DNA of 64,000 bases from Deltaproteobacteria bacterium. GTDB lineage: Bacteria; Desulfobacterota; Syntrophia; Syntrophales; UBA8958. Below, one piece after another: positions 10,224-56,851 of the stretch (its first letter is position 1; each line of letters opens with the position of its first letter). The position numbers were made by a program, and so were the translations under genes. The notes under the pieces are model-generated. The model saw only the letters and a list, made by a program, of their open reading frames with translations. It ran no database searches and had not been told where the DNA came from. Location of the stretch: contig JAPLJZ010000079.1 in the NCBI GenBank assembly GCA_026388335.1, forward strand, positions 2,586-66,585, given 5' to 3'.

Positions 10224-10244
10224 CCATACTTATTTTGCCTGCTG

Positions 10245-11909: not shown

Positions 11910-11957
11910 GTCTATTTCCTCCTTCTTACTTATATCCTCGTTTTTATATGTTTATTC

Positions 11958-26510: not shown

Positions 26511-27053
26511 ATGACATCTGAAGACTGTATAACCATGAACCGTCGCGAATACACCCGTGTTTATGCCTACATTCCCATGGCCTATCGTCTTATATCAAAG
26601 GATGAACATCCGGTGGTTCGTTCCCGAATCTCAGGTAATATGGCCATCCCGGATTACTCCATGCTGCCGGAGGTTGAGGAACCCCTTCTCAACGAATGGT
26701 TACGTGTGATCAATACAAAGCTCGATTCCCTTATCCGGCTCATAACGCTCCAAGGTGAGGGCTTTCAGTCTCTTCCCTTCAAGGCGGTCCACATCAGCGG
26801 CAACGGAATTAATTTTACAACTAAAGATCCTTTCCAGTCCGGTGATATTCTGGAAATGAAGCTTGTTTTGTCTTCCGGGCAGTCGGCGGGGCTGTACCTT
26901 TATCTCTATGGTGAAGTTGTCAAAACTGAAAAGCAGACCAGCGGGTACGTAACGGTTCTGAGTTATGTCAAGATAGACGACAAGATCAGGGATGAAATCG
27001 TCCGCTTCGTTTTTGAAAAGGAACGGGAAATTCTTAGAGAGAAAAGGAAGTGA
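26511..27053 (+). CDS. PilZ-domain protein with widely separated c-di-GMP motifs
   Basis: 180 aa. RxxxR is at residues 12-16 (RREYTR). An xxSxxG-like motif HISGNG is at residues 94-99, followed by a beta-barrel-like C-terminus. Confidence 0.65.
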   Translation: MTSEDCITMNRREYTRVYAYIPMAYRLISKDEHPVVRSRISGNMAIPDYSMLPEVEEPLLNEWLRVINTKLDSLIRLITLQGEGFQSLPFKAVHISGNGINFTTKDPFQSGDILEMKLVLSSGQSAGLYLYLYGEVVKTEKQTSGYVTVLSYVKIDDKIRDEIVRFVFEKEREILREKRK

Positions 27054-27061
27054 AATAATCT

Positions 27062-27919
27062 ATGTTTGTCATTTTTGGAGTGCTCTTCGTGACCGCATGC
27101 GTGATCGGCGGCTACCTTCTGGAACACGGTAAATTAGAAGTACTGTTCCAACCGGTGGAACTGTTGATCATCGGCGGGGCTGCTTGTGGCGGTTTTCTTA
27201 TAGCTGCACCCCTGAAGACCGCTAAGACCGTCATGGCCGCCGTGTTAGCCACCCTTACACACAAGCCCTATGGCAAGCAGGAATATATGGAATCACTGAT
27301 ACTGCTCAATGGAATTTTTTACAAAATCAGGCAACAGGGTCTTGTTTCCATTGAAAGCGATGTGGACGACCCCGAAAAAAGTCTTCTTTTTAACAAATTC
27401 CCGAAGATTTTACACAACCACCGTGCCATCGGTCTCATCACCGATACCCTGCGGCTGGTCATGACGACCACGATAGCCTCTCATGAACTGGAAGCCCTCA
27501 TCGATACGGAATTGGAAGGTCATTTTGAAGAACTGATCCTCCCTTCCAAGATGGTAAATTTTACCGCCGATTCCCTCCCAGGTCTCGGTATCGTAGCGGC
27601 CGTTCTCGGGATAGTCCTGACCATGGCAAAAATAGATTCGCCCCCTTCCGTATTGGGAAACAGCATCGGCGCTGCCCTGGTGGGAACATTTCTCGGCGTT
27701 CTCCTCTGCTATGGCTATGTTGGACCGATGGGGAAGAATCTCGAACACGTCGCCATGGAAGAATTACAGTATCTGGTGGTTTACAAGGTAGCGCTGGTGT
27801 CCTTTGTCGGCGGCGCCGCCCCCAAGGTGGCCCTGGAATTCGGGCGCCGGGTCATCCCCCATGAATCAAAACCGGGTTTTCTGGAAGTCGAAGAAGCATT
27901 GCGGGCGCAAAAGAAATAA
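27062..27919 (+). CDS. motA: Flagellar stator protein MotA
   Basis: 285 aa with a MotA 4-TM layout. Its stop directly abuts the motB start. Confidence 0.9.
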   Translation: MFVIFGVLFVTACVIGGYLLEHGKLEVLFQPVELLIIGGAACGGFLIAAPLKTAKTVMAAVLATLTHKPYGKQEYMESLILLNGIFYKIRQQGLVSIESDVDDPEKSLLFNKFPKILHNHRAIGLITDTLRLVMTTTIASHELEALIDTELEGHFEELILPSKMVNFTADSLPGLGIVAAVLGIVLTMAKIDSPPSVLGNSIGAALVGTFLGVLLCYGYVGPMGKNLEHVAMEELQYLVVYKVALVSFVGGAAPKVALEFGRRVIPHESKPGFLEVEEALRAQKK

Positions 27920-28696
27920 ATGGACGACAAAGCAACCATAATTATCAAAAGAGGAAGAAACAAGAAACAAGAAGGCCATCATGGCGGTTCATGGAAGGTC
28001 GCCTATGCCGATTTCGTGACGGCGATGATGGCCTTCTTTCTGTTGATGTGGCTGATCTCGATGGTCTCCCCTGATAAGAAAGCGGCCGTTTCCCAATATT
28101 TCAAAGAACCGAATGTCTTTAAAGAGCAATCGTCATCGTCAGCATCAAGCAAATCAATGCTGGACAAATCCCCCAGCCCTTTGGGTATGGCGCCTCCCAT
28201 CGGGAAGGCGGGCGCTACGGATCTTGTCGCCAAGATGAAAAAATCGGTGGAGCAGAAACTTCAGAGCTCCAAGAACCAGGTCGTCATCGACATCGTCGAG
28301 GGCGGTGTCCGGATCCAATTGATCGATATGGAGGGAAGCATGATGTTTCCGGCGGGAAGCAATGATCTGAGCGCCCGGGGCAAGGAAATCATCAAGCTTG
28401 TTGCCGAGAATATCAAAGACCTTCCTAATCGCATCGCCGTCGAAGGCCATACAGACGCCGCTCCCTTTACAGCCAAAGGCGCACATGTGACCAACTGGGA
28501 ACTTTCTACCGCCAGAGCTTCTTCGGCGCGGCGGGAACTGGAAAACAACGGGATTGAACCCACTGCTATCGCCAGAGTCGTAGGATATGCTGATCAGGAA
28601 TTGTACATCAAGGAAAATCCGAACGATCCGCGGAACCGGAGAATCAGTATTATCGTTCTCCAGCCCCGGCAACAGGTCATGCAGCAATTAAGGTAG
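27920..28696 (+). CDS. motB: Flagellar stator protein MotB (OmpA-like peptidoglycan-binding C-domain)
   Basis: 258 aa. It has a TM helix with the conserved Asp (WKVAYADFVTAMMAFFLLMWL) and an OmpA-like C-terminus (AVEGHTD...NWELSTARASSARREL...NRRISI). Confidence 0.9.
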   Translation: MDDKATIIIKRGRNKKQEGHHGGSWKVAYADFVTAMMAFFLLMWLISMVSPDKKAAVSQYFKEPNVFKEQSSSSASSKSMLDKSPSPLGMAPPIGKAGATDLVAKMKKSVEQKLQSSKNQVVIDIVEGGVRIQLIDMEGSMMFPAGSNDLSARGKEIIKLVAENIKDLPNRIAVEGHTDAAPFTAKGAHVTNWELSTARASSARRELENNGIEPTAIARVVGYADQELYIKENPNDPRNRRISIIVLQPRQQVMQQLR

Positions 28697-28735: not shown

Positions 28736-29203
28736 TTAGGTGCTCTCAGTCAGACAGACATCAACAACAAAAGGGCCGTGATCGGTGGTGAAGGGGATAA
28801 TGATGCTTGGCCCCCCCATGACGTGGACAATCGAGTGGCCCTTCCCGGAAACCACCGTGGGAATGGCGGCGGAGATGGTAAAGCCTTCAGCTTCCAATCT
28901 TTTCCGCGCCGACCCGGACACCATATTTGTAATCTCACCGACGGCGTCCTTAATATCTCCGTTAATCTCTTTAATCTCCTCACCAAGCATGTTGGAGACG
29001 ATCCTGACGATGCAGGATTCAGAAAAAGTCAATGCCAGAGACCCTTTTGCCGCCCCCGTCATACCGATAATTGCCGATATGTCGCCCTTGGCATAGTTGT
29101 CCTTTTTAAGATAGGGCTTACCCGGAGTTGGTTCAACAAAGGCCATCGTTTTCAACACATCGATGGTCGCTTCTAAAAAAGGATTGATAAATTTGACGTT
29201 CAT
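28736..29203 (-). CDS. cheX: CheY-P phosphatase CheX
   Basis: 155 aa with the CheX-type ExxN motif (AVGEITNMVSG) and an N-terminus reading FINPFLEATIDVLKTM. Confidence 0.8.
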   Translation of the reverse strand: MNVKFINPFLEATIDVLKTMAFVEPTPGKPYLKKDNYAKGDISAIIGMTGAAKGSLALTFSESCIVRIVSNMLGEEIKEINGDIKDAVGEITNMVSGSARKRLEAEGFTISAAIPTVVSGKGHSIVHVMGGPSIIIPFTTDHGPFVVDVCLTEST

Positions 29204-29226
29204 AGCGTTACTCGCCTCTATTCCCC

Positions 29227-29604
29227 TTATTTTTCCATAATTTTCGTTATTTTTTCATTCAGCGTCTCGGCGGTAAACGGCTTCACAATATAATTGCTGA
29301 CCCCGGCCTTGACTGCGGCAACAACGTTTTCCTGAAGCGACTCGGCCGTAATCATAAGAAATGGCGTCTTTCCGATTTCAGGGTCGGCCCGCACCGCTTT
29401 GAGAAGTTCATAACCCGTCATGTTCGGCATGTTCCAGTCGCTGATCACAAAATCAATCTTTTGTGATTTCAAAATATTTAAGGCCACGACGCCGTCTTCC
29501 GCTTCCACAATATTCTCGTATTGAACCTGTTTGAGAATGTTCCTGATGACTTTCCTCATCGTGGCAAAATCATCAACAACAAGTATCTTAATGTTTTTAT
29601 CCAT
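29227..29604 (-). CDS. cheY: Chemotaxis response regulator CheY
   Basis: 125-aa single REC domain (ILVVDD, VISDWNMP, VKPF). Confidence 0.9.
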   Translation of the reverse strand: MDKNIKILVVDDFATMRKVIRNILKQVQYENIVEAEDGVVALNILKSQKIDFVISDWNMPNMTGYELLKAVRADPEIGKTPFLMITAESLQENVVAAVKAGVSNYIVKPFTAETLNEKITKIMEK

Positions 29605-29641
29605 GGCTCCTCCCGAACACTTTATATTCTTCCATTCTTTA

Positions 29642-30109
29642 TCAGCACTGCTGCTGATATATGATCATTTCCACGCGCAAGGGAATATGGCCGGACTCGA
29701 AATTTAGATCGAGTTTATAAATTTGCCTCTGGCCGTCAAGTTCACTTCCGCCCTTCCCGATGACGGCTTTTGGCAACGTCATATGAAACAGTTTGTCAGC
29801 GTTGTGTTTTTGCAGAAAATTACCGCAGAGCATATTGAGGCATTCTCTCCGGCAATCCGCCAGGATCTGGTCGGACATTTCCTGATCATCCATTCCCAGG
29901 GCGTTTGCCGCCATCATCATCGACAATTCCTGAGGAAATCGAGCAATGATGCTTCCAGCTATATCGCCGGAAAAGCCAATCTCGACGGCGCTGAAATCTT
30001 TCCCGGCGGCTTCACCTTCTACCGGTTCCAGAAATATATAATACATTTTTTCAAATACTTCGAAAACCGCCTTCAGCAGGTTTTGTCTCAATATCTTGTT
30101 CTGTTCCAT
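29642..30109 (-). CDS. Divergent CheX/CheC-like domain protein
   Basis: 155 aa with an ExxN-like motif (RRECLNMLCGN) in a CheX-length protein, inside the che operon. Confidence 0.5.
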   Translation of the reverse strand: MEQNKILRQNLLKAVFEVFEKMYYIFLEPVEGEAAGKDFSAVEIGFSGDIAGSIIARFPQELSMMMAANALGMDDQEMSDQILADCRRECLNMLCGNFLQKHNADKLFHMTLPKAVIGKGGSELDGQRQIYKLDLNFESGHIPLRVEMIIYQQQC

Positions 30110-30147
30110 ATTCGGATGCGCCTCAGTTATATTGGTTGATTATAAGA

Positions 30148-30993
30148 TTATTTATCAACAATACGCAACAATTCATTTGCCTGTTTTAACTGCTCCAGGA
30201 GCATGAGCATACACTTTTCGATGTCGGATTCCCTTAATTGAAATTTATTCGTCACCTCGCTGAATCCCCGGTGGGCAAGGCCATCCATCCCGCCGTCGAT
30301 ACCCATCGTCAGGCAGAACTGATCGGACAGGTAGATGAGACTGATTAATACCTTCCCTTCGGGATCGATAAGATTAGGGCGATGATGCAAGGCGATGGCA
30401 TCTCTGATTTCCGCAGGGAAGTTCCAGTATTCGGCGATCCGCCCGCCAAGATCTGCGTGATTGATGCCAACAACCTCTTCCTCAGCCTCAAGAAACGAAT
30501 AAGCGTGATTATTTACAAGTTCGAAGATCTTTTTGGACGCATCCTGCACGTACTCGCCCATCACCAATTTCCCTACATCGTGGAGCAGGGCTGCCGTATA
30601 AAGAACGGAATTTTCCTGTTGGTACATCTGACGCGACAAAATCTGCGACATCAGGGCAACGGCCACCGAATGCTCCCATAGCTCGCTGGCTTTATCGCCA
30701 TAACCCTTATTTGTAAAGAACTTCGAGATGCTTGCCGTCTGAATGGCGCGGACGAGATGCTGTTGCCCCAAATAGACGACGGCGTCATGAATGGTCTTGA
30801 TTTTTTGACGGACACCAAAATAAGCGGAATTACTTATTTTAAGGATATTTGCGGTGACAGCCTGGTCGAATTTAATGACCGCTACGATTTCATTGACCGA
30901 ATAGTCCTCATTTTTAAGAAGTTCGGCTACCCGCTGTACAGTCGCCGGAAAGGCCGGCAATTTATTAATTGAAAGGAGGATTCTGTCGAGCAT
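30148..30993 (-). CDS. HDOD-domain signalling protein
   Basis: 281 aa with an HDOD N-terminal pattern (LPAFPATVQRVAELLKNEDYSVNEIVAVIKFDQAVTANILKISNSAYFG) and LLHDVGKLV. Confidence 0.85.
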   Translation of the reverse strand: MLDRILLSINKLPAFPATVQRVAELLKNEDYSVNEIVAVIKFDQAVTANILKISNSAYFGVRQKIKTIHDAVVYLGQQHLVRAIQTASISKFFTNKGYGDKASELWEHSVAVALMSQILSRQMYQQENSVLYTAALLHDVGKLVMGEYVQDASKKIFELVNNHAYSFLEAEEEVVGINHADLGGRIAEYWNFPAEIRDAIALHHRPNLIDPEGKVLISLIYLSDQFCLTMGIDGGMDGLAHRGFSEVTNKFQLRESDIEKCMLMLLEQLKQANELLRIVDK

Positions 30994-31475
30994 TATAACT
31001 CCTCTACCGCTCCACCAGAAGATCTAACGAAGCACTTGCCGTCGGCAAGCTGGAGCTTAACCGTACGGTTACAGTTTTTCCCGGTGTCTTCTGCTTTGAT
31101 TAGTACATTGTTTTTCCAGAATAATTTTCTCATCGCGGTGATGTTCTTTTGTCCGATGCGAAAATAATCCGCATCGTTGAGAATACTTGCCCCACCGGCA
31201 ATCTTTACGATCATTCGCTTCTTTTCCGCGCCTAACTGATAGCAGCTCTTGAAGAGCAAGGGAACCCCCGTATCGGCAAACATACCCGGTAATGCAGCCG
31301 CCTTGGTTTTATCCAGCGTTGAATCTGGAAGCATGAAATGCAGCATGCCCCCCACTCGCGCCATCGGGTCATAGATGACAACGGCGATACAAGAACCCAA
31401 AGCATAGGTTATAATAACATCATTCTGTTGTCCGCTGCACTTCAGGTCTGAAATTCCTACAACAAGATCAGCCAT
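30993..31475 (-). CDS. cheD: Chemoreceptor glutamine deamidase CheD
   Basis: 160 aa with the CheD core (YALGSCIAVVIYDPMARVGGMLHFMLPDS). Confidence 0.9.
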   Translation of the reverse strand: MADLVVGISDLKCSGQQNDVIITYALGSCIAVVIYDPMARVGGMLHFMLPDSTLDKTKAAALPGMFADTGVPLLFKSCYQLGAEKKRMIVKIAGGASILNDADYFRIGQKNITAMRKLFWKNNVLIKAEDTGKNCNRTVKLQLADGKCFVRSSGGAVEEL

Positions 31476-31516
31476 AATTGAAATATTACAATTCCTTTCC
31501 TCACGCCCGATCCGTA

Positions 31517-31544
31517 ATCAATGAGAAACATGTTTCTCATTGAT
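31517..31544. promoter_or_regulatory. Perfect 28-bp palindrome in the cheD leader
   Basis: ATCAATGAGAAACA|TGTTTCTCATTGAT. It lies between the sigma-54 promoter at 31625-31640 and the cheD start at 31475. Confidence 0.5.
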
Positions 31545-31624
31545 ATGAAGAAATCGCTTCCATCTGAATTGATCACCGAGAAACGACCATGAGCGGATCT
31601 GCATCGCAATTCTGTCTCACGAAA

Positions 31625-31640
31625 TGCAAATTTAAGGCCA
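31625..31640 (-). promoter_or_regulatory. Sigma-54 promoter for the cheD-HDOD-cheX-like-cheY-cheX operon
   Basis: Reverse strand reads TGGCCTTAAATTTGCA. It lies about 150 nt upstream of cheD and 18 nt downstream of the activator gene stop. Confidence 0.7.
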
Positions 31641-31657
31641 GATATAATGAAAGGTAG

Positions 31658-33025
31658 TTACAGCCTTTTGAGTTTCTCAACAAGAGTGGTGCGATTCAGA
31701 TTGAGCATCTTTGCCGCCCGGTTTTTTACACCGCCGCATTTGTCAAGGGCTTTTAAAAGGAGATCCTTTTCAAACTGAACGACCATGTTGTTGAAATCAA
31801 CTCCTTCCTCCGGAAAATCACCGCTGTATTGGGTGGAGGCGGGAATCCTTCTCTGAGCTATCTTGTTCGGTAAATCCTCGATGCCAATGTCACCCTCTTC
31901 TTTCATGACCACAAGCATCTCGATCAAGTTCTCCAGTTCTCTCACGTTACCCGGCCAGGGGTATTCCATAAGCATGTTCATCACCGCCGGGGCAATACGT
32001 TGTACATCCTTCTTCTTTAATTTGTTGACCTTCTTCAAGAAATGATTTGCCAAAATCGGCAGGTCCATCCCCCTTTCTCTGAGGGGGGGCAAATAAATAG
32101 GGATGACATTGATGCGATAAAAAAGGTCTTCCCGGAATCGCTTCTCTTCGACAAGTTTTTCCAGATCCTGGTTCGTCGCGGCAATAATTCTGACATCGGC
32201 GTTGATGGTTTTGACGCCCCCGATTCTTTCAAACTGCTTCTCCTGAATCACCCTTAACAACTTCACCTGCAGGGCGGGACTCATGTCTCCTATTTCGTCG
32301 AGGAAGATCGTGCCCCCCTGGGCAAGTTCGAATCTGCCGATTCTGGTTCGGATCGCCCCGGTGAAGGCCCCCTTTTCGTGGCCAAACAGCTCACTCTCCA
32401 GGAGTTCTTCCGGAATGGCACCGCAATTGACCGGAACAAGAGGTTTATCTTTTCGCTCGCTATTGAAATGAATTGCCCGGGCGACCAGTTCTTTTCCGGT
32501 GCCGCTATCGCCGTGAATGAGGACGGTACTATCCGTCGTCGCCACCTTCTCTATTTTTTCAAATACTTTCTTCATCGGTTCGCTGTATCCGATCATTTTA
32601 CCAAAATCGGGGTGATTCTTCAATCGACCCTTGAGGAGAACATTTTCTTCCTTCAGTTTTACATAGGATAACGCCCGCTCGATGGTAATTTTGACAAGAT
32701 CGTTTTTAAGAGGCTTGGTGACGTAGTCAAAAGCGCCCATCTTCATGGCGTCAACAGCGGAGTGGACACTGGCGTAGCCCGTGACGAGAATCACGAGATT
32801 ATTCTGGTTCATTTCCTTGACAAACCGCAACAATTCAAGACCATCCGCGTTGGGCATCCGCAGATCGGTGATCACGAGATCATAGCGGTCTCTCACAAAT
32901 TCCTCCATGCCCTGTTTTCCATCTGCCACGGCCTTGGCGAGGTAACCGCTTTCCTCGACAAGATCCACTAAATTCTGACGATTGAGTTCATCGTCTTCGG
33001 CAATGAGAATCCTGAATGCTTTCAT
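31658..33025 (-). CDS. Sigma-54-dependent response regulator (NtrC family) embedded in the che locus
   Basis: 455 aa with REC (ILIAEDD...VITDLRMP), Walker A GDSGTGKE, GAFTGA and a C-terminal HTH (AAKMLNLNRTTLVEKLK). Confidence 0.9.
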   Translation of the reverse strand: MKAFRILIAEDDELNRQNLVDLVEESGYLAKAVADGKQGMEEFVRDRYDLVITDLRMPNADGLELLRFVKEMNQNNLVILVTGYASVHSAVDAMKMGAFDYVTKPLKNDLVKITIERALSYVKLKEENVLLKGRLKNHPDFGKMIGYSEPMKKVFEKIEKVATTDSTVLIHGDSGTGKELVARAIHFNSERKDKPLVPVNCGAIPEELLESELFGHEKGAFTGAIRTRIGRFELAQGGTIFLDEIGDMSPALQVKLLRVIQEKQFERIGGVKTINADVRIIAATNQDLEKLVEEKRFREDLFYRINVIPIYLPPLRERGMDLPILANHFLKKVNKLKKKDVQRIAPAVMNMLMEYPWPGNVRELENLIEMLVVMKEEGDIGIEDLPNKIAQRRIPASTQYSGDFPEEGVDFNNMVVQFEKDLLLKALDKCGGVKNRAAKMLNLNRTTLVEKLKRL

Positions 33026-33295: not shown

Positions 33296-35191
33296 ATGAA
33301 AAGATCCTCGTTGCGCACAAAACTTTTAACGGGAGGTATCCTGATCGTCCTTATACCACTTCTCGTGGTCGGCATTTTTTCGGCCTACAAATCATCTACG
33401 GCCCTTCAGGAAATTTCCCTCGAACAATCTGTTAATGTAGCCAAAAACCTCTCCGCCATGGTCCAGATGACCCTGGCGGAAGAAATCAAGATGCTGACGG
33501 CCTTCTCCGTTGACCCGGCCTTTATTGACGCTACGGGTGGAAACAGTGACCTCGCCGCCGCTAAGCTCACGGAGATGATGAAAAAAATCGGCGGTGAATA
33601 TGAAGTCCTCTTTGTGGCCGATGCAACGGGCCTCATTAAGGCAGACGGCATCGGAGGATCATACAACGGCATCAACATCGGGGAACGGGATTATTTTGTC
33701 ACGGCCAAGGCCGGTAAAGCCAACGTCGGGACGGTGATCAAGTCGAAAAAGACGGGATACCCCGTCGCCGTGGTCGCCGCCCCCGTTTATAAGGACGGCA
33801 ATTTTTCCGGTATCATCGCCGCGGCCATGAAAGTCGACACCTTGATCGAAAAAATCTCCTCGATTAAAATCGGCAAGACCGGGTATGCCTTTATGACGGA
33901 TAAAACGGGCCTTGTCATCGCCCATCCCAAAAAGGAATTCGTTCTCGAACTGAATATGAGAAACATCCAGGGCATGGAAAATATCACCAAAAGAATGCTC
34001 GCCTTTGAGACGGCCTCGGATCATTATGTATTCAAGGGTGTGAACAAGATTGCCGGCTTTGCCCCCGTGGAAATTTCAAGCTGGGCTATCGGCGTCACCC
34101 AGGATGAAGCGGAATTTCTTGGGGCCGCCCATGCAATCCGCAATGTTATATTTATCTTCGCCGGCGTATTTCTTCTCCTCACCGTGGTGGGCGTTCTCTA
34201 TTTTGCCAGAGGCATTACCCTTCCTATCGGTAAGGCGACGGCAGAACTGACCGAAGCCTCTACGCAGGTAGCCGCAGCCTCAAGCCAGGTAGCCACCGCC
34301 AGCCAGTCTCTCGCCGAAGGGGCCTCCGAACAGGCCTCGGCCCTCGAAGAGACATCCTCTTCCCTGGAAGAAATGTCTTCCATGACCAAGCAGAACGCCG
34401 GCAACGCCTCTCAGGCGGACAGTCTTATGAAACAGGCCAATTCTGTGGTCAAGAGGGCCAACGACTCCATGGCCGAACTTACCCGTTCGATGGGAGACAT
34501 CTCCGCGGCAAGCATGGAGACATCGAAGATCATCAAAACCATCGATGAGATCGCCTTCCAGACGAATCTGCTGGCCCTGAACGCCGCTGTGGAAGCGGCA
34601 AGGGCCGGGGAAGCGGGGGCCGGTTTCGCCGTCGTCGCCGAAGAAGTCAGAAATCTGGCCATGCGGGCGGCGGAAGCGGCAAAGAATACCTCCGCCCTTA
34701 TCGAAACCACGGTAATCAAGATCAAGGACGGCTCCAATCTCGTATCCAAGACGAACGAGGCATTCCTGGAAGTAGCGGCGAGCGCCTCCAAGGTCGGCGA
34801 ACTGGTCGGCGAGATTTCCGCAGCCTCCAATGAACAAGCTCAGGGCATTGACCAGATCACCAAGGCGGTCGCGGAAATGGACAAGGTAACCCAGGAGACG
34901 GCTGCCAGCGCGGAAGAATCCGCCTCCGCGTCCGAAGAAATGAACGCCCAGGCGGAACAGATGAAGCATGTCACCGCGGAATTGACGAATATCATCGGGG
35001 GGAATACGGAACACATGCACAGCGCCGCTTCCGGCGCTGCCGGAGCGAGGACGTCGGGATTGCGCAAGGTCCTCCGCCTTACCGGGGCCAGCGGGAAAGA
35101 TAAATCGCCGGCTCATCATTCCAGCGCCATGAAAGGGCGGCAGGTAACGAAGCATAGTTCTATTGACGATAGTAATTTCTCGGACTTCTGA
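33296..35191 (+). CDS. Methyl-accepting chemotaxis protein with a periplasmic Cache-type sensor
   Basis: 631 aa. A TM segment is followed by a roughly 250-aa Cache-like region ([12 protein letters not shown]...[16 protein letters not shown]) and a second TM segment. The MCP signalling hairpin reads [40 protein letters not shown]. The C-terminus is NFSDF. Confidence 0.9.
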
Positions 35192-35192
35192 T

Positions 35193-36005
35193 ATGCAATT
35201 GATGAATGCCGACTTGAAAGACAGTGATTTTGACCGGATTAGCAAGCTTGTTTACGAGCAGTGCGGAATCCATCTGCACGATGGGAAAAAAGAGCTTGTC
35301 AAGGCCCGGTTGGGAAAGCGTCTCCGGGAAGGCAATTTCAGATCCTTTGCCGATTATTACGGGTATGTGACGACCCGTGAAGGTCAGGAGGAATTGATCA
35401 CCATGATCGATTCCATCTCCACTAACCTGACCTATTTTTTCAGAGAAGAGAGCCACTTCCGAAAGTTGGAGAAGATTTTACCGAAATTGTCGGAAAATAA
35501 AAAACTCAACCTCTGGTGCGCCGGATGCTCTACGGGAGAAGAGCCCTATTCCATAGCCATGATCGTCAGGGAACAAGTCAACGTCAGCGCCGTCAATGTC
35601 AAAATATTGGCGACGGACATCTCGACTAAGGTCCTGAAAACGGCCCAGGCTGCCGTTTATCCGACCGAAAGAACCGACAAGATCCCCCAACCCCTTTTAA
35701 GGAAATATTTCCAGTACGGCACCGGCCCTTCTGCAGGGCTCTACCGGGTGAAAAAGGATCTCCGCGACCTGATAGAATTCCGACGCTTGAACCTCATTGA
35801 ACCGTTTCCGCAACAATTCCGGTTCGATGTCATCTTTTGCCGGAATGTCATGATCTATTTCGATAAGGCTACCCAAAGCGTCCTGGTCAATAAATATTAC
35901 GAACACCTGGAAAAAGGCGGTTATTTATTCGTCGGTCATTCAGAAAGCCTCACGGGATTGTCCCATCCCTTCAAGTATTCTGAACCGAGCATCTATAAAA
36001 AATGA
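35193..36005 (+). CDS. cheR: Chemotaxis methyltransferase CheR
   Basis: I chose the start at 35193 (MQLMNADL...), 1 nt after the MCP stop. The SAM-binding motif is LWCAGCSTGEEPYSIAM. Confidence 0.9.
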   Translation: MQLMNADLKDSDFDRISKLVYEQCGIHLHDGKKELVKARLGKRLREGNFRSFADYYGYVTTREGQEELITMIDSISTNLTYFFREESHFRKLEKILPKLSENKKLNLWCAGCSTGEEPYSIAMIVREQVNVSAVNVKILATDISTKVLKTAQAAVYPTERTDKIPQPLLRKYFQYGTGPSAGLYRVKKDLRDLIEFRRLNLIEPFPQQFRFDVIFCRNVMIYFDKATQSVLVNKYYEHLEKGGYLFVGHSESLTGLSHPFKYSEPSIYKK

Positions 36006-36027: not shown

Positions 36028-37520
<1,493 letters not shown>

Positions 37521-37522
37521 AC

Positions 37523-39739
37523 ATGACAGACAATGCATTGATCGCACTTGCCGATGAGATGGCCTCGGATTTCCTGTTTCTTAGCGGTCGCGAGGTGGAT
37601 ATACCTGCCGCGGGCATGTTCCTTAATCAACTCGAAGGCGTAATGAAAGCGGCCGAGGAACATCAGTTGGGGCCGATCAAGACGGTGTCCTCGGGAATGA
37701 GTTTCCTTCTGGAAAAGATGATCCTCGATGCCGTGAAGGACAAGGAAGCAGGTTTTGCTGTCATCGAAAAAGGGATTACCATTATTCAGCAACTTGCCCA
37801 GGAATATCAGCTCTCCGGCAAGATCGAGGGTAGTATCGATACTTATCTGGAAACCCTTTCCAAGTTGATCGGCTTCGTACCGGAAGGGGCGCCAAAAAGC
37901 GAAGATTCAGCAGCACCGGTGGAACAGGAGAAACAGGACCGGCCCGATGATATAACCCCCGATGGTATAACGGAAGTTCAGGACATGTCGCTCCTGAAGG
38001 ATTTTATTACCGAGTCTCTCGAATATATTGATGAGATTGAGGTCAACATCCTGAATCTCGAGCAGGATACTGAAAATAAAGAATATATAAACGCCATTTT
38101 CAGACCCTTTCATTCCATCAAGGGGGTCGCGGGCTTTCTGAATCTGGACGAGATCAGAACTCTGGCCCACAGCCTGGAGAATCTTCTCGACAAGGCCAGA
38201 AACGGCGAGCTGGAAGTTTCGTCTGCGGTGATCGACGTTGTTCTCGAAGGAGCAGACACCTTGAAGGCCATGATCGTGCACTTGAAAAACGAGATGGAAG
38301 GTCGGCAGCTCCCGCCTCCATCGCTTGATATTAACGCCCTGAAAGAAAGAATCAAACAGGTTGAGTCCGGCGTCGAACCGCCCCCGCAACGAAAACGCGT
38401 CGGGGAGATTCTCGTGGAGGATGGAATCATTTCCCAAGCAGCCCTCGATGAGGGGCTGCAAACAGCGCAGGAGGTTCCGGGAAAGAAAATCGGTGAAGCG
38501 CTTATCAGCAAGGGCATTGCCACACCCAAACAGGTTTCCACCGCCCTGCGCAAACAAACGGAACAGGCTACGGACGCCACGATGATCCGCGTCGATATGC
38601 GCAAACTGGATGATATGATCGACATGGTCGGCGAACTGGTCATCACTCAGACGATCATTCAACAGGATGTTAAACATCATATCAGTTCAGACCGCAATCT
38701 CCATCGCGATATTTCTCAGCTTTCCCGGATCAGTTCTTCACTCCAGCGGGCCTCGACGGGCCTGCGCATGATCCCCATCAAGCAGACTTTCCAGCGCATG
38801 TCGCGCCTTGTTCGTGATCTTGCCAAGGGGGCCGGCAAGTCTGTCGTCATTGAACCGGTGGGTGAAGATACGGAAATTGATCGTAACATGGTCGATGAAA
38901 TATACAACCCCCTCGTGCATTTGGTGAGAAACGCCGTTGACCACGGCATCGATACCCCGGAGGAAAGAATCCGCAGCGGCAAACCGGAAAAAGGCCTGAT
39001 TGAACTGAAGGCCTATCATCGCGGCGGCAATATTGTCATCGAAATCAGCGACGACGGCAGGGGTCTTAATAAAGAAAAAATTTTACAGAAGGCCATCAAG
39101 AACGGCGTGGTCGGTGAGAACGACAATCTCACGGATTATGAAATCTACCGCCTGATCCTGTTGCCGGGACTCTCCACGGCGGAAAAGGTCACGGATATCT
39201 CCGGTCGCGGTGTGGGTATGGATGTGGTCAAACAGGCCGTGGAAAAACTGCGAGGCAAGATTGACATTACCTCGGTCCCCGGCAAGGGAACAACCTTTAT
39301 CACCAGCTTCCCACTGACAATGGCCATCATCGACGGGATGATCGTTAGAGTCGGCAAGGAGCGTTATATCCTGCCGACAACAGCGATTCGTCAGGCCCTG
39401 CGTCCGGCCAGGAAGGACTACACCAATATCATCGGCAAGGGTGAAATGATCACCGTTATGGGGCGACTCCTGCCACTCATAAGATTGGCCGATTTGTTTG
39501 GCATTGCGGCAAACAACCACGAGCCGTGGGATGCCATTACCGTCGTTGTGGAAGGGGAAGGTCGCGCCAAGTGCATCATGGTTGATGAGATCCTCGGAAA
39601 GGCAGAGGTCGTCATCAAAAGCCTTGGGGACGGCCTGAAAAACACCAAGGGAATATCCGGCGGCGCCATCCTTGGGGACGGCCAAATCGGTCTGATTATC
39701 GATCCGGAAGGATTGTTTGAACTGAGTGAAAACTTGTGA
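37523..39739 (+). CDS. cheA: Chemotaxis histidine kinase CheA with an N-terminal extension and an MshEN-like insert in place of P2
   Basis: 738 aa. The Hpt His is in FRPFHSIKGVAGF (His197). P3 begins IRVDMRKLDDMIDMVGELVI (about aa 353). The HATPase domain contains GRGVGMDVV and a CheW-like P5 domain follows. Residues 290-345 read RKRVGEILVEDGIISQAALDEGLQTAQEVPGKKIGEALISKGIATPKQVSTALRKQ. Confidence 0.9.
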   Translation: MTDNALIALADEMASDFLFLSGREVDIPAAGMFLNQLEGVMKAAEEHQLGPIKTVSSGMSFLLEKMILDAVKDKEAGFAVIEKGITIIQQLAQEYQLSGKIEGSIDTYLETLSKLIGFVPEGAPKSEDSAAPVEQEKQDRPDDITPDGITEVQDMSLLKDFITESLEYIDEIEVNILNLEQDTENKEYINAIFRPFHSIKGVAGFLNLDEIRTLAHSLENLLDKARNGELEVSSAVIDVVLEGADTLKAMIVHLKNEMEGRQLPPPSLDINALKERIKQVESGVEPPPQRKRVGEILVEDGIISQAALDEGLQTAQEVPGKKIGEALISKGIATPKQVSTALRKQTEQATDATMIRVDMRKLDDMIDMVGELVITQTIIQQDVKHHISSDRNLHRDISQLSRISSSLQRASTGLRMIPIKQTFQRMSRLVRDLAKGAGKSVVIEPVGEDTEIDRNMVDEIYNPLVHLVRNAVDHGIDTPEERIRSGKPEKGLIELKAYHRGGNIVIEISDDGRGLNKEKILQKAIKNGVVGENDNLTDYEIYRLILLPGLSTAEKVTDISGRGVGMDVVKQAVEKLRGKIDITSVPGKGTTFITSFPLTMAIIDGMIVRVGKERYILPTTAIRQALRPARKDYTNIIGKGEMITVMGRLLPLIRLADLFGIAANNHEPWDAITVVVEGEGRAKCIMVDEILGKAEVVIKSLGDGLKNTKGISGGAILGDGQIGLIIDPEGLFELSENL

Positions 39740-39819: not shown

Positions 39820-40335
39820 ATGGCAGAGGACATAATAAAGGCAATGGATCAGGCAGTGAAGGCCATTTCCAATCGGGAGGGAAAATATCTTACCTTTACC
39901 CTGGCGGAAGAGGAATACGGCATCGGCATTCTGAAAGTAAAAGAGATTATCGGTATGATGACGATTACCACGGTCCCGCAAACGCCAGGATATGTAAAAG
40001 GCGTCATCAACCTCCGGGGGAAGGTTATTCCCGTTATCGATCTGCGGCTGAAATTCGGCATGGAAGCCATGGAATACACGGAAAGGACCTGTATCATCGT
40101 GGTGGAAATAACGGGACCTAACGCGAAAATTCCCATGGGCATCGTCGTCGATTCGGTATCGGAAGTCCTCAACATCAAGGCCGGCGACATCGAAGACACC
40201 CCGACCTTCGGCAGCAAAATGGACACCGCTTATATCCTCGGCATGGCCAAAACGGGAGGCGGCGTCAAAATTCTCCTCGATATCGACAAAGTCCTTAACT
40301 CGGAAGAGATGGGTCTTCTGGATCGCATGGCCTGA
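39820..40335 (+). CDS. cheW: Chemotaxis coupling protein CheW
   Basis: 171 aa with the CheW fold pattern (EEYGIGILKVKEIIGMMTITTVPQTPGYVKGVINLRGKVIPVIDLR). Confidence 0.9.
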   Translation: MAEDIIKAMDQAVKAISNREGKYLTFTLAEEEYGIGILKVKEIIGMMTITTVPQTPGYVKGVINLRGKVIPVIDLRLKFGMEAMEYTERTCIIVVEITGPNAKIPMGIVVDSVSEVLNIKAGDIEDTPTFGSKMDTAYILGMAKTGGGVKILLDIDKVLNSEEMGLLDRMA

Positions 40336-40522: not shown

Positions 40523-40972
40523 ATGAAAAAAATCTTGATGGCGGTTATTATTTGTCTGCTTACAACGGGTTATGTATATGCTGCGGAAAAGGGAACGGCC
40601 AAGGAGGCCCAGGATCTCGTGGGGAAAGCCATTGCCTATTACAAGGCCAACGGCAAGGACAAGGCCTTTGCAGCCATTAATGAACCCAAAGGTCAGTTCG
40701 TCAAAAAGGATCTTTATGTCTTTGTCTTCGACTTCAATACGGTCTGCCTGTCCCACGGCGCCAACAAGGCGCTTATCGGCAAGAACCTGAAGGAACTCAA
40801 GGATACCAATGGAAAGCAGTTCATGAATGAAATGACCATTGGGGCCAAAACCAAAGGCAAAGGCTGGGTTGATTATAACTGGACAAACCCGACGACCAAG
40901 AAAATTGACGCCAAGTCAACCTATTACCAACGGGAGGGGGATTATTTCTTCTGCTGCGGGATCTATAAATAG
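40523..40972 (+). CDS. Secreted stand-alone single-Cache (sCache_2-like) protein, copy 1
   Basis: 149 aa with a signal peptide (MKKILMAVIICLLTTGYVYAA) and an sCache_2-like pattern (A.A.Y...G...AF..I......F....LYVFV.D.....L.H......G.N......D..G...........G.GWVDY.W.NP........K..Y......Y....GIY). Confidence 0.7.
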   Translation: MKKILMAVIICLLTTGYVYAAEKGTAKEAQDLVGKAIAYYKANGKDKAFAAINEPKGQFVKKDLYVFVFDFNTVCLSHGANKALIGKNLKELKDTNGKQFMNEMTIGAKTKGKGWVDYNWTNPTTKKIDAKSTYYQREGDYFFCCGIYK

Positions 40973-41030: not shown

Positions 41031-41063
41031 TTGATTAAAACTAAAATAAAGGGGGGAAAATGG

Positions 41064-41513
41064 ATGAAAAAAATCTTGATGGCGGTTATTATTTGTCTGC
41101 TGACAACGGGTTATGTTTACGCTGCGGAAAAGGGAACGGCCAAGGAGGCCCAGGATCTCGTGACTAAAGCAATTGCCTATTACAAGGCCAACGGCAAGGA
41201 CAAGGCCTTTGCGGCCATTAATGACCCCAAAGGTCAGTTCGTCAAAAAAGACCTTTATATCTTTGTCATCGACTTCAATTCTGTCATGCTGGCCCACGGC
41301 GCCAACAAGGCCCTTATCGGCAAGAACCTGAAGGAACTCAAGGACAGCAATGGAAAGCAGTTCATTAATGAAATGACCCAAGCAGCCAAAACCAAAGGCA
41401 AAGGCTGGATTGATTATACATGGACAAACCCGGTGACCAAGAGGATCGAGCCCAAGTCATCCTATTTCGTGAAGGAAGGGGATATGTACTTCGGCTGCGG
41501 GATCTATAAATAA
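41064..41513 (+). CDS. Secreted stand-alone single-Cache (sCache_2-like) protein, copy 2
   Basis: I chose the start at 41064 (MKKILMAV...). It is 149 aa and is a close paralogue of 40523..40972. The first roughly 100 nt are almost identical; divergence is concentrated in the central and C-terminal parts. Confidence 0.7.
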   Translation: MKKILMAVIICLLTTGYVYAAEKGTAKEAQDLVTKAIAYYKANGKDKAFAAINDPKGQFVKKDLYIFVIDFNSVMLAHGANKALIGKNLKELKDSNGKQFINEMTQAAKTKGKGWIDYTWTNPVTKRIEPKSSYFVKEGDMYFGCGIYK

Positions 41514-41524: not shown

Positions 41525-41563
41525 AATGCAGCCAGATAGACCCCCAGTCTGTCTGGCTGCATT
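41525..41563 (+). terminator. 16-bp stem hairpin (one G-U pair) between Cache copy 2 and the next MCP
   Basis: aatgcagccagataga, loop cccccag, then tctgtctggctgcatt. There is no U-tract. It ends 20 nt before the MCP ATG at 41583 and overlaps the longer track ORF start, which argues against that start. Confidence 0.45.
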
Positions 41564-41582
41564 AACAGAGGGGGAAGAGCAT

Positions 41583-43178
41583 ATGAGACGTATTATCAAC
41601 AACTTAAAGATGGCCAACAAGTTGATCCTGGCACCCATGACCGCCATTTTCTTTTTATTGGTGCTGGCCTATGTATCCTACTACGGACTTAGCGGGCAGA
41701 AGACGGCCATCGAGGATATCTTCAACAACCGCTTCAAGGCTTATCAGAGCAGTTCTGAACTAGTAAAAACCATCGCCAATGTTCATGCCAATCTCTACAA
41801 GGTCATCAGTTGGGCAGGGGCAAATATAGGCGCGGAAAAGACCGAGGCCCTGGCCAAGGAACAGCGAAACGCTATGGAAAAGCTCCTTGGTCATATTCAG
41901 AATATCCTGAAATCAGAGACCCTCACCCAGGAAGAGAAAAAACTCTATCAGGACACCTTGCAGCAATTGAAGGACTATCAGACCCCGGCCATCGGAATCC
42001 TGGACATGGCCACGACGGATTTGAATGCCGCAACCATGTTCATGGCCAATACGGATGATAAATACCAGGTCCTCAACAAGACCCTGGGGCAGCTTATGGA
42101 GCTTGAAACCAGGCTCAGCAAGGAAAAATATGATGCGGCGATGACAAGCTATTCCGCCGTCCTGAAAATATTTGTGATTGTGATGATCATTGCCGTGCTC
42201 CTGTTTGTCGTGATCAACGTGTTCATGGCCCGCATCATTACCCAGCCCATCATGAAAACAATCGATGTTGTTCGCAGGGTAGCAGAAGGTGATCTTACTC
42301 AGGATATCGATGTGGATTCGAAGGACGAGATAGGTGAACTGGCCGACTCCGTGAACACCATGCAGAGTAAAATGGGAGAAGCAGTGGGTCAGTCTCTGAT
42401 GACTGCAGAGGTTTTGTCCGAGGCTGCCTCCGAACAGGCGGCCGCCATTGAGGAAACATCGGCGTCTCTGGATGAAATGGCGTCTATGACCAGGCGCAAC
42501 GCAAGCAACACCACCGAGGCCAACAGCCTGATGAACACGGCGAAACAGGCTATTCAAAAGGCGAATATCTCCATGGCTGATCTTACGGTATCAATGAAGC
42601 AGATCGCCTCGTCGAGTGAACAGACCCAGAAAATTGTGAAAAGTATCGATGAGATTGCCTTTCAGACCAACCTGCTGGCCCTGAATGCCGCCGTGGAAGC
42701 TGCCCGGGCCGGTGAGGCCGGCGCCGGCTTTGCAGTGGTTGCCGATGAGGTCAGGAATCTCGCCATGCGCGCCACCGAGGCGGCCCGGAATACCTCCGAG
42801 TTGATCGACGACATCGCCGTCAAGGTCAAAGGCGGAGATAGCCTGGTAAATACGACCAATGATGCCTTTCAGCAGGTGACCACGAGTTCGTCAAAGGTTG
42901 TGGAGCTGATGGCGGAGATTGCCGCCGCCTCCCAGGAACAGTCCCAGGGGATCGATCAGGTCAATCGCGCCGTGGCCGAGATGAACCAGGTCACCCAGCA
43001 AAACGCCGCCAGCGCCGAGGAACTGGCCTCGATTATGTCGATGTTCAAGACAAATTATGAGGGAGGACACACGGCAGGGGCATCAAAGGTGAAACGGTTG
43101 CCCGCTCCTGCGGCCCGGGGACTCTCCCGTGCAGTATCTCCCGAAAAGGCGATTCCCATGGGTGAAGATGACTTTTAA
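41583..43178 (+). CDS. Methyl-accepting chemotaxis protein (helical 4HB-type sensor, HAMP)
   Basis: I chose the start at 41583 ([10 protein letters not shown]...). It has two TM segments, a HAMP domain ([28 protein letters not shown]) and the MCP hairpin [40 protein letters not shown]. The C-terminus is GEDDF. Confidence 0.9.
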
Positions 43179-43264: not shown

Positions 43265-44896
43265 TTGTCATCACAAAGAGTGGGGGAGAAATTGAACAAC
43301 TTCAAATTAAAAACAAAAATATTGGTAGCCTTTGTAGCGGTATCCATGGTTTTGGCTATCGGGGGTGGGGTCGGAATCTTCTTTCTTCACAAAAGCGCCC
43401 GGGCCGGCACAGCCATGTACGAGAACAATCTGAAATCTCTTAATGATATATCTAATGTTCTGAACTATTTCATGCAGTTGCGGGTAAGAGCGCTTTATCT
43501 GCAAGTGGAAAAGTTCGTTATGAAAGACGATAACCGCGCCGTGGCCAGCGCCGGCGCCATGAAGGAAATGGACAAGAAGATCATGGGGCTGGTCGCGGAA
43601 TACGAAAAGCGCGTTGATCAGCAGAACAAGGGTTTCTATGGAGACTTCAAGAGTCAACTGACCAAATATATAGAAACGCGAAGCAAGATGGACGAACTCA
43701 TCGTCGCCGGCAATCAGGCCGAGGCCATGGACTACATGCTCGGTACCGTGACCCCCCAGGGGGCAAAGGTCCTCCAGATGTTCGACCAACTCTATGAAAC
43801 AGAAGTGAAAAACGCCCAGGCCAAGGCCGAGGAAAACAGTGCACTCACGAAGTGGGCCTCCTGGTTCATGGGATTGTCAACCGCCGGCGGCATCGCCTTT
43901 TTCATCTTTCTCGGATTCATCCTGACCAGGGTCATCACCCTGCCGATCAATCGCGTCGTCACGGGTATGTCGGAAGGGGCGGAACAGGTGACGTCTGCTT
44001 CCACGCAAGTCGCTTCCGCCAGCCAGAGCCTGGCCGAGGGGGCATCCGAACAGGCATCAGCTCTTGAAGAAACCTCCGCATCCCTCGAAGAACTCTCGTC
44101 CATGACCCAAAGAACCCTCGATAACGCCGATAGCCTCAATAAATCCGGCGATATCACTTTTGGACTTATGAAAAGCAGCCACAAGGCCCTGAAGGAGACG
44201 GACGCCTCCATGAAGCGGATCGGCGAATCCAGTGAAAAGGCATCGAAGGTTGTCAAGGCGAGCGATGAAATCGCCTTCCAGATCAATCTCCTCGCCCTCA
44301 ACGCCGCCGTTGAAGCGGCAAGGGCGGGCGAAGCGGGATCAGGGTTTGCCGTTGTCGCCGAAGAAGTCAGAAACCTGGCGAAAAAATCCGCCGAAGCGGC
44401 GAAAAATACCGAAGTCATTATTGGCGAAATGTCCACGCTTATTGACGACGGTATGTCCCATGTAAAAAATACCCTTGAATCCTTCCATGCCATGGGGGAT
44501 GAAGGCAAAAATACCAACAGTATGATCAAGGAGATTCATCAGGCATCTCAGGAACAGATGCAGGGGATTCAACAGATCGCAACGGCCGTCGGCAATATGG
44601 ATAAAGTGACCCAGGCGACAGCCGCCAGTGCTGAGGAATCGGCCAGCGCCGCCGAGGAATTGAACGCCCAGGCCCAACAGATGAAGGCTTTTGTGGGGGA
44701 ATTAATCGCCGTGATCGGCAGCAGCAACGGTAACACCATAGCCGTAACAGGAGCTTTGCCATATCAACGGTCAAGCAATCCTGATAAGAAGAAAATCATC
44801 GCTCCGGGAAGGCGGCCAGCAGCGGCGACGGGCGCCAAGGGTGTTCGTCCCGATCAGCTTATTCCTCTGGAAGAAAAAGATTTCCAGGATTTTTGA
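43265..44896 (+). CDS. Methyl-accepting chemotaxis protein (helical sensor, no obvious HAMP)
   Basis: 543 aa with the MCP hairpin [40 protein letters not shown] and a C-terminus DFQDF. The start is uncertain: TTG at 43265, or TTG at 43292 giving (M)NNFKLKTK. Confidence 0.85.
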   Translation: MSSQRVGEKLNNFKLKTKILVAFVAVSMVLAIGGGVGIFFLHKSARAGTAMYENNLKSLNDISNVLNYFMQLRVRALYLQVEKFVMKDDNRAVASAGAMKEMDKKIMGLVAEYEKRVDQQNKGFYGDFKSQLTKYIETRSKMDELIVAGNQAEAMDYMLGTVTPQGAKVLQMFDQLYETEVKNAQAKAEENSALTKWASWFMGLSTAGGIAFFIFLGFILTRVITLPINRVVTGMSEGAEQVTSASTQVASASQSLAEGASEQASALEETSASLEELSSMTQRTLDNADSLNKSGDITFGLMKSSHKALKETDASMKRIGESSEKASKVVKASDEIAFQINLLALNAAVEAARAGEAGSGFAVVAEEVRNLAKKSAEAAKNTEVIIGEMSTLIDDGMSHVKNTLESFHAMGDEGKNTNSMIKEIHQASQEQMQGIQQIATAVGNMDKVTQATAASAEESASAAEELNAQAQQMKAFVGELIAVIGSSNGNTIAVTGALPYQRSSNPDKKKIIAPGRRPAAATGAKGVRPDQLIPLEEKDFQDF

Positions 44897-50781: not shown

Positions 50782-50798
50782 CAGGATAGACGAAAACA

Positions 50799-51994: not shown

Positions 51995-52021
51995 ACGAAA
52001 AGCGATGCAGAAACTGGCATC

Positions 52022-52891: not shown

Positions 52892-52897
52892 AATACC

Positions 52898-54803: not shown

Positions 54804-54816
54804 GAAAAAAGCAAGC

Positions 54817-55608: not shown

Positions 55609-55643
55609 GTTTTGTGCTCCCTCTTTTTGGTTATAACAAAAAA

Positions 55644-56755: not shown

Positions 56756-56851
56756 CCTTCCCGAAGTCAGACACTAAACGGTCAATAGATCTCTCTCAAG
56801 GTTCCTTAGAAGTTCAATGTTTCTTCACGAATAACCGCACTGGAGGTGCCC

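Follow-up and report, generated by a model that had tools for sequence, protein, structure and literature searches.

A Syntrophales CheA with an MshEN_N-type module in place of P2, a candidate c-di-GMP input to the chemotaxis kinase

Introduction

The MshEN domain was defined by Wang et al. (2016) through a 24-residue motif in Vibrio cholerae MshE, which binds cyclic di-GMP (c-di-GMP) (PMC5013675). In MshE, the side chain of position 1 stacks on guanine, residues 2, 17 and 21 form leucine triads, O6 and N7 are recognized by the backbone NH groups of Gly-3 and the residue after it, Gln-24 contacts ribose and phosphate, and the basic patch consists of K5/R7/K8/R9 (PMC5013675). The isolated V. 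cholerae MshEN_N subdomain binds c-di-GMP without MshEN_C (dissociation constant, KD, 0.35 uM), and the related XpsE, with the inactivating changes G11V, I19R, L29R, R38G, G40L, L54H, L58C and Q61V, does not bind (PMC5013675). The chemotaxis kinase CheA is among the MshEN fusion partners of the same study (Suppl. Table 4), which includes an example from Aeromonas veronii and (MshEN_N)2-CheX fusions (PMC5013675). The fusion of CheA to MshEN_N is, thus, not new: it was catalogued in 2016 and is functionally uncharacterized in the searchable literature. Described here is a CheA of this architecture that is encoded in a 64,000-nucleotide stretch (the window) of a Deltaproteobacteria bacterium of the Syntrophales (GCA_026388335.1, contig JAPLJZ010000079.1, positions 2,586 to 66,585). 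The window CheA is a P2-less member of the catalogued architecture in which one half-site is weakened.

The tolerance of the motif to change is known from the GSPII domains of the T. thermophilus PilF. Nanomolar affinity is possible with a Lys or Leu at position 1, a single exchange of Gln-24 for Glu (Q190E or Q218E) lowers the affinity about 100-fold (KD 0.5-1 uM), and only the double Gln-24 mutant abolishes binding (PMC11731258). The window CheA shares its fold and motifs with the PilF domains, both the binders GSPII-B and -C and the non-binder GSPII-A, and PilF is its best sequence match in the PDB; GSPII-B accommodates small changes in length as well as Lys or Leu at position 1. Unlike the CheA module, the PilF domains carry a C-terminal subdomain and sit in an ATPase. 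The Escherichia coli glycosyltransferase NfrB, an unrelated enzyme, likewise carries an MshEN-type module, at its C-terminus; it differs from CheA in partner enzyme and module position, and its activation by c-di-GMP is taken here from the name of the protein model.

Other routes from c-di-GMP to chemotaxis include MapZ-CheR1 of Pseudomonas aeruginosa, the PilZ chemoreceptors Tlp1 and Cbp1, the YcgR-type brakes and PlzC-CheX of V. cholerae. As is proposed for the CheA module, these routes tie the c-di-GMP level to flagellar or chemotactic output. To our knowledge, all use PilZ and act on a methyltransferase, receptor, phosphatase or motor, and none acts on CheA or through MshEN.

Tandem MshEN motifs in CheA

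The cheA gene (37523-39739, forward strand) encodes a protein of 738 aa and is identified by its open reading frame (ORF), the Pfam and NCBIfam CheA models and a full-length AlphaFold2 (AF2) model. A P1 histidine phosphotransfer (Hpt) domain with its His and the P3, P4 and P5 domains are recognized by Pfam, and cheR, cheY, cheB and cheW flank the gene. The NCBIfam CheA models match the protein at E = 2.3e-129, yet under the equivalog cut-off. Between the Hpt and H-kinase_dim domains, nucleotides 38390-38557 (forward strand) translate to RKRVGEILVEDGIISQAALDEGLQTAQEVPGKKIGEALISKGIATPKQVSTALRKQ, which corresponds to CheA residues 290-345. This sequence was quoted exactly by the original prediction, a reading of the window made from its letters, and translation and Pfam agree that it lies between P1 His197 and P3.

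The segment starts with a basic arm (Arg290-Lys291, 38390-38395), identified by alignment to MshE (5HTL), directly ahead of motif 1 (aa 292-315, RVGEILVEDGIISQAALDEGLQTA; 38396-38467), which is found by profile and phmmer. A spacer of six residues (aa 316-321, QEVPGK; 38468-38485) separates motif 1 from motif 2 (aa 322-345, KIGEALISKGIATPKQVSTALRKQ; 38486-38557), which matches the relaxed consensus regular expression (regex). Both copies fit the MshEN pattern of Arg/Lys-1, hydrophobic-2, Gly-3, Gly-10 and hydrophobic-17/21. The contact positions are Arg292, Val293, Gly294, Leu308 and Leu312 in motif 1 and Lys322, Ile323, Gly324, Val338, Leu342 and Gln345 in motif 2; position 1 and the hydrophobic triad (2, 17, 21) are, thus, occupied as expected in both, with Val338 for Leu a conservative deviation. 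The RKR-V-G that spans the arm and the start of motif 1 matches the RKR-L-G of MshE, and residues Pro286-288 lie upstream. None of the XpsE-inactivating changes occurs in the CheA module.

Against the relaxed regex that Wang et al. (2016) give, copy 2 passes, copy 1 fails at position 24 alone and copy 2 of many homologs fails at position 11 (Lys). Profile methods were used in place of regexes because copy 1, and copy 2 of many homologs, fail the published patterns. The 53-position NCBIfam model NF053729 ('cyclic di-GMP-binding domain-containing protein, MshE-related'; cut-off 38 bits) matches the whole CheA with 45.7 bits (E = 4.2e-12; aa 292-345, profile positions 1-53 of 53), the segment alone with 49.9 bits (E = 2.1e-13) and 41 of 41 homolog segments. 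The NCBIfam NfrB equivalog models align to the identical stretch (E = 2.7e-7, segment). By phmmer, the PDB sequences matched are the T. thermophilus PilF (2.9e-15), the V. cholerae MshE 5HTL (4.9e-8) and the C. thermophilum PilB, and all matches at E < 0.005 belong to the MshE or PilF/PilB families. The domain scores are higher for the binders MshE (35.8 bits) and PilF GSPII-C (35.9) than for the non-binder PilF GSPII-A (9.6). Among 384 six-frame ORFs of the window (at least 60 aa), CheA is the sole significant match of a hidden Markov model (HMM) of the CheA-type module. Residues 292-345 of CheA, thus, carry an MshEN_N-type module with a match far beyond chance.

The CheA module resembles MshEN_N of MshE (5HTL) in its tandem 24-residue motifs, four-helix bundle, RKR(L/V)G start, Gly-3, Gly-10 and motif-2 Gln-24. 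By contrast, its host is a chemotaxis kinase, not a T2SS/T4P (type II secretion system/type IV pilus) ATPase, the module is internal instead of N-terminal and MshEN_C is missing. The sequence differs from MshE in the motif-1 Gln (Ala in CheA), Lys at position 1 and Val at position 17 of motif 2, and the length of the spacer.

Predicted fold and the missing P2

Two AF2 models were built, one of the segment (aa 280-356, 41 sequences) and one of the full-length protein (67 sequences). The segment model has a mean predicted local distance difference test score (pLDDT) of 76 and four helices (alpha1 293-299, alpha2 305-317, alpha3 323-329 and alpha4 335-352), which are predicted to form a compact bundle with a short alpha1. 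The best match by Foldseek against the PDB is 5HTL, MshE with c-di-GMP (root-mean-square deviation 1.1 A over 57 columns, 37-41% identity, probability 1.00); the runners-up are c-di-GMP-bound PilF GSPII-B, and the top 17 matches are all MshEN/GSPII domains. Only 13 residues lie between motif 2 and P3, with no strand predicted in them; MshEN_C is absent, and the CheA module falls into the class that Wang et al. call 'MshEN_N only'. In both models alpha1 starts only at 293, with the PPP sequence upstream of the motif; therefore, no extended, N-capped alpha1 is predicted like the one that blocks the site of PilF GSPII-A. Helix alpha4 may run on into the first helix of P3, as suggested by the segment model (335-353); the full-length model shows a low-confidence break at 350-357.

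The domain order of CheA is an N-terminal helical domain, P1, MshEN_N, P3, P4 and P5. Pfam recognizes Hpt at 157-254 (E = 7e-15), H-kinase_dim at 353-410, HATPase_c at 463-599 and CheW at 605-733. All of the following domains are on the forward strand. P1 (aa 155-281; 37985-38365) has five helices, A-E, predicted at 155-181, 186-205, 209-226, 234-258 and 270-281, and its phospho-accepting His197 (38111-38113) is invariant in 67 sequences. P1 helix E is followed after only about 10 residues by the module, which in the full-length model thus takes the position of P2. A connector of fixed length (aa 346-358; 38558-38596), based on homolog alignment and AF2, joins motif 2 to the first helix of the P3 dimerization hairpin (aa 359-415, helices 359-385 and 391-415; 38597-38767), and P3 is followed by the P4 ATP-binding kinase domain (aa 416-600; 38768-39322) and the CheW-like P5 (aa 601-738; 39323-39736).

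P2 has no Pfam match in CheA and no beta-strand is found before residue 416 of the model. The full-length model is all-helical through residue 415, the first strand starting at 416. Thus, CheA is predicted to lack an alpha/beta P2 fold, and the original prediction is borne out in its statement that no canonical P2 is evident; the ordinary P2 fold, which it named as an outcome that would speak against it, is absent from a model that instead gives a four-helix bundle closest to c-di-GMP-bound MshE. The lack of a significant MshEN profile match, part of the other such outcome, is likewise not seen, as NF053729 matches above its curated cut-off. Like the Aeromonas CheA-MshEN_N of Wang et al., the window CheA has its module immediately upstream of P3. 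By contrast, the Aeromonas protein keeps its CheY-binding P2 and starts motif 1 with Met, while the window CheA has no P2, starts motif 1 with Arg292 and has an extra N-terminal helical domain.

The N-terminal domain of CheA (aa 1-120; 37523-37882, forward strand) is all-helical (helices within 4-116, pLDDT 82-91 in the full-length model) and is followed by a disordered linker (aa 123-151). It has no Pfam match, and the search against PDB sequences gives no significant match (best E 0.26). Many distant relatives have two P1 domains where CheA has this domain; hence, it may be a degenerate, His-less P1. Such an identity was not established by profile comparison, as hhalign against P1 gives a probability of 2.5% (E = 0.018, not significant). 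The sole stretch aligned in this comparison is the region of the His-box helix.

Conservation in close homologs

The close homologs examined are the 120 best (60-100% identity), of which the nearest named are Syntrophus or Syntrophales. The module is kept in all 120. Invariant in this set are Gly294 and Gly324 (Gly-3 of both motifs), Gly301 (Gly-10 of motif 1) and Leu342 and Gln345 of motif 2, and likewise Leu-6 and the hydrophobic position 7. Position 1 is Lys or Arg in 106 of 120 in motif 1 and in every homolog in motif 2. The mean identity of the module (62%) is near that of P3 (66%), compared to 18-39% in the linkers, and the 13-residue connector to P3 is constant in length in 66 homologs. 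Judged by this pattern, the putative ligand-contact residues of the CheA module are under selection.

Distribution of CheA-MshEN_N

A scan of GTDB species genomes reveals 68 loci, every one a cheA gene with the module insert, from Syntrophales, Desulfobacterales, Planctomycetota and Acidobacteriota; the Syntrophales loci include the complete genome of Syntrophus buswellii DM-2. An exhaustive phmmer search with aa 286-420 against 1.84 billion cluster representatives provides 2217 matches at E <= 1e-3, of which 234 are at E <= 1e-10. In 121 of the best 150 representatives, a sample that is biased towards relatives of the query, the module lies immediately upstream of P3, and the gap between the two is mostly 6-20 residues. 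The survey of CheA homologs that the original prediction had called for, thus, finds the insert well beyond the close relatives of the window CheA. One module is present in 104 of these 121 representatives and two in the other 17. Named members of this wider set include Fibrobacterota and Omnitrophota.

The gap between P1 and the module is less than 100 residues in 101 of 107 representatives and leaves P2-sized room in six, which suggests that the P2-less form predominates in the sampled CheA-MshEN_N representatives. Members of the type with P2-sized room are found in Nitrospirota, Nitrosomonadales and Alphaproteobacteria, among others. At one locus of this clade (L070, representative P0267; contig DAHWNB010000009.1, genes 9702-12163), a STAS-domain gene precedes and overlaps cheA, a GGDEF-EAL gene lies 5 kb upstream and the layout of the che cluster is unlike that of the window. 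Among the distant representatives, Gly-3 is kept in 120 of 121 for motif 1 and in 121 of 121 for motif 2. The spacers of CheA-type modules are usually 6-7 residues.

Five proteins outside the window (P0128, P0133, P0149, P0167 and P0182; about 1160-1180 aa) have three repeats of the unit Hpt (P1)-MshEN_N-MshEN_N. The kinase core P3/P4/P5 is absent from all five, one of which bears the JGI label CheA. Their domain content would make them multi-Hpt phosphorelay proteins, each carrying six putative modules for c-di-GMP. We know of no description of this three-repeat architecture.

Evidence for and against c-di-GMP binding

The reading preferred here, held as moderately probable, is that MshEN_N has replaced P2 in CheA and that c-di-GMP binding at this site modulates phosphorylation. 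Binding itself is likely, as judged from the sequence of the module, and the affinity is probably sub-micromolar to micromolar, which by analogy to the PilF mutants would, given the absence of the motif-1 Gln, be weaker than that of canonical modules. Also consistent with this reading is the c-di-GMP machinery of the same motility region, namely a PilZ-MotAB unit and an HD-GYP gene; the presence of the PilZ and HD-GYP proteins was correctly stated by the original prediction.

Several observations weigh against it. Copy 1 ends in L-DEG-L-QTA-Q, such that the canonical position 24 is Ala315 and a Gln follows one residue later. Of the two motifs, only motif 2 has Gln-24 (Gln345). The spacer is six residues compared to five in MshE, and the unit is 54 residues instead of 53. 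Thus, the tandem pattern of the original prediction stands in its two copies, which NF053729 and phmmer find significant, but falls short at the end of motif 1 and in the spacer. Alignment by HMMER treats Gln316 as the counterpart of MshE Gln32 with a one-residue insertion, an assignment rejected on the spacer norms and the poor conservation of Gln316. Since the spacers of CheA-type modules are normally 6-7 residues with Gln-24 in place, and Gln316 is not conserved, Ala315 is taken as a real loss of Gln and not as an alignment artefact. Among the 120 close homologs position 24 of motif 1 is A in 50, S in 17, T in 13, V in 11 and K in 8, and the residue directly after it is Gln in just 53. In the wider CheA-MshEN_N set, 99 of 121 have Gln there; thus, the loss is specific to the clade of the window CheA, which by this comparison would lack one polar contact at motif 1. 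The confidence of the full-length model is low at the break of 350-357, and the coupling to P3 may, therefore, be flexible. In the literature searched, no paper was found on c-di-GMP binding to any CheA, in agreement with the statement of the original prediction that no characterized CheA has this module. A V. cholerae PlzC paper that was considered as CheA evidence concerns CheX instead. PilF GSPII-A bears the motifs yet fails to bind c-di-GMP, even when the consensus is restored; its site is blocked by an N-capped, extended alpha1 and by inter-subdomain contacts, and the domain is proposed to serve as a 'landing pad' (PMC12002112). By this precedent, bearing the motif would be insufficient on its own to assert c-di-GMP binding. 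The Pfam model T2SSE_N (PF05157), the search proposed by the original prediction as a check, fails to match CheA at E up to 10, with only a weak, sub-threshold DUF4388 match. This negative is attributed to the span of the Pfam model, which covers N and C subdomains while CheA has MshEN_N only; with the N subdomain alone present, it is not treated as a refutation.

The failures of PF05157 and of the copy 1 regex would also be expected if the likeness to MshEN were a chance one or if P2 or linker sequence had been misread. This explanation is refuted, as the profile E values are 1e-12 to 1e-13, the PDB sequence matches are confined to the MshE and PilF/PilB families, the 17 best fold matches are all MshEN/GSPII, the model is all-helical with no beta-sheet, and the module is kept in homologs of several phyla. 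A plausible alternative, though unlikely, is a degenerate MshEN_N that fails to bind c-di-GMP and instead acts as a rigid spacer or docking pad, fulfilling part of the role of P2 with CheY, CheX or the PilZ protein as a possible partner. Such a role is consistent with the loss of the motif-1 Gln in the clade, the landing-pad proposal for GSPII-A and the location of the module at the usual site of the CheY-docking P2. It is also supported by the PilB N-terminal domain from Xanthomonas (7LKM), a structural match which binds a PilZ protein and not c-di-GMP, although the identity of the module to 7LKM is 18% compared to 37-41% for MshE. Non-binders drift, however, at Gly-3, Leu-17/21 and Gln-24 (XpsE; A41 of GSPII-A), whereas the 120 close and about 120 distant homologs of CheA show no variation in the Gly-3 pair, the hydrophobic triads or the motif-2 Gln, a constancy not obviously needed by a docking pad. 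The models also lack the N-cap and extended alpha1 of GSPII-A.

A cyclic dinucleotide other than c-di-GMP is a very improbable ligand. One candidate is 3',3'-cyclic GMP-AMP (cGAMP), which is used by some deltaproteobacteria and, as an asymmetric ligand, would suit the unequal half-sites of the clade (a canonical motif 2 and a Gln-less motif 1). MshEN binds cGAMP weakly (KD about 0.33 mM), but the Gly-3 amides select guanine, where adenine N6 would clash (PMC5013675), and Gly-3 is invariant in both motifs of CheA. The window encodes the c-di-GMP components PilZ and HD-GYP, and no cGAMP-specific component was seen in it.

Proposed mechanism

Of the possible modes of c-di-GMP action, a specific one is put forward tentatively, in which c-di-GMP would be a direct allosteric ligand of CheA, bound where the P1 and P3 tethers join, and would gate the access of P1 to P4. 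One c-di-GMP would bind where the beginnings of alpha1 and alpha3 (Arg292-Val-Gly294 and Lys322-Ile-Gly324) and the final parts of alpha2 and alpha4 (Leu308/Leu312 and Val338/Leu342/Gln345) come together at one end of the bundle; the contacts are predicted to converge there because the published MshE structure places them so. The polypeptide would arrive from P1 at this end too, about 10 residues past helix E, and would exit from it to P3 through the fixed 13-residue connector after Gln345. Since the ligand end would be the point of P1 entry and P3 exit, binding may re-order the basic arm and first turn of alpha1. An extended alpha1 should be prevented because Pro286-288 precede the arm. Re-ordering could, in turn, alter the geometry or reach of the very short P1 tether near the hinge between P3 and P4; autophosphorylation, or phosphate flow from P4 through P1 to CheY, would be modulated as a result. 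Whether and in which direction c-di-GMP affects the kinase is speculation, and it is a guess that high c-di-GMP would inhibit CheA or change the bias.

Genomic neighborhood

The cheA gene lies in a motility region. Genes for flagellar export, switch, hook and related functions occupy about 71-23400 of the window. A MotA/ExbB-family gene (8814-9587) is present besides the MotA-MotB pair described next, which is a second stator set. The assignments that follow are by Pfam. PilZ (180 aa; 26511-27053), MotA (27062-27919) and MotB (27920-28696) are encoded in succession on the forward strand. The PilZ protein has the RxxxR motif as REYTR but HISGNG in place of (D/N)xSxxG. The PilZ-MotA-MotB unit looks like a c-di-GMP-controlled stator or brake and may give c-di-GMP a second entry to motility.

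Downstream of MotB are CheX, CheY, CheX, HDOD, CheD and a sigma-54 response regulator (28736-33025). The genes next to cheA, all on the forward strand, encode a dCache methyl-accepting chemotaxis protein (MCP; 33296-35191), CheR (35163-36005), CheY (36028-36459) and CheB (36489-37520) upstream and CheW (39820-40335) downstream. Two small sCache_2 proteins follow (149 aa, 40523-40972; 160 aa, 41031-41513; forward strand), the first assigned by Pfam and the second by its translation, near-identical to the first. The two are tandem secreted paralogs with near-identical N-terminal halves and no transmembrane signaling domain and may be periplasmic ligand-binding partners of MCPs. Two 4HB MCPs (41526-43178 and 43265-44896, forward strand) are next, then two PAS hybrid kinases and a group (50386-54803) of response regulator, CheX, HDOD, metallo-beta-lactamase-fold and HD-GYP genes. 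The phosphodiesterase of the HD-GYP type (53817-54803, forward strand; Pfam HD_5, DUF3391 and HD) combines DUF3391 with the catalytic domain, and its translation includes the motifs HD at 195, HHE at 249 and GYP at 257.

HDOD proteins are found in both che groups. One (30148-30993, reverse strand) is beside CheD and CheX, and the other (52022-52891, forward strand) is between a run of response regulator, CheX and 115-aa ORF (50386-51994) and the metallo-beta-lactamase-fold and HD-GYP genes (52898-54803). At about 283 aa, the CheX at 50799-51650 is double the normal size for such a protein. Pfam has no match to its C-terminal 140 residues, which look like low-complexity or coiled-coil sequence with abundant Lys and Glu; unlike the (MshEN_N)2-CheX fusions of Wang et al., this CheX has no MshEN motif by the scan of window ORFs. 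No c-di-GMP riboswitch or other family was found by an Rfam scan of the window. Three ORFs are without any Pfam match (E up to 1e-5): 54754-55665 (303 aa), 56846-58360 (504 aa) and 58767-62975 (reverse strand; 1402 aa), the last of which is the largest in the window.

At a second locus (L069), where CheA is 61% identical, cheA is surrounded by the same set of genes, arranged differently (CheR, CheD, HDOD, CheY, CheX, CheB, CheA, CheY, CheX, MotB, MotA, PilZ and flagellar rod genes). The association of cheA with flagellar motility and the PilZ-stator unit is, therefore, conserved.

Significance

The idea of a CheA-MshEN fusion was flagged by Wang et al. 2016 and is not unexpected to specialists, and the host, a slow-growing syntroph, is a poor experimental system. 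Built into CheA, a c-di-GMP sensor would, nevertheless, connect the second messenger to the kinase on which the chemotaxis pathway centers. If the proposal is correct, the level of the second messenger would set CheY phosphorylation without a PilZ adaptor, at a widespread, phylum-spanning control point predicted in 2016. The proposed ligand site, where both tethers meet, makes the hypothesis concrete enough to be tested by mutation. As a common and conserved fusion, mostly without P2, CheA-MshEN_N has members in Syntrophales, Desulfobacterales, Planctomycetota, Acidobacteriota, Fibrobacterota, Omnitrophota and Nitrospirota; thus, a single well-chosen biochemical test would inform a large class of chemotaxis systems.

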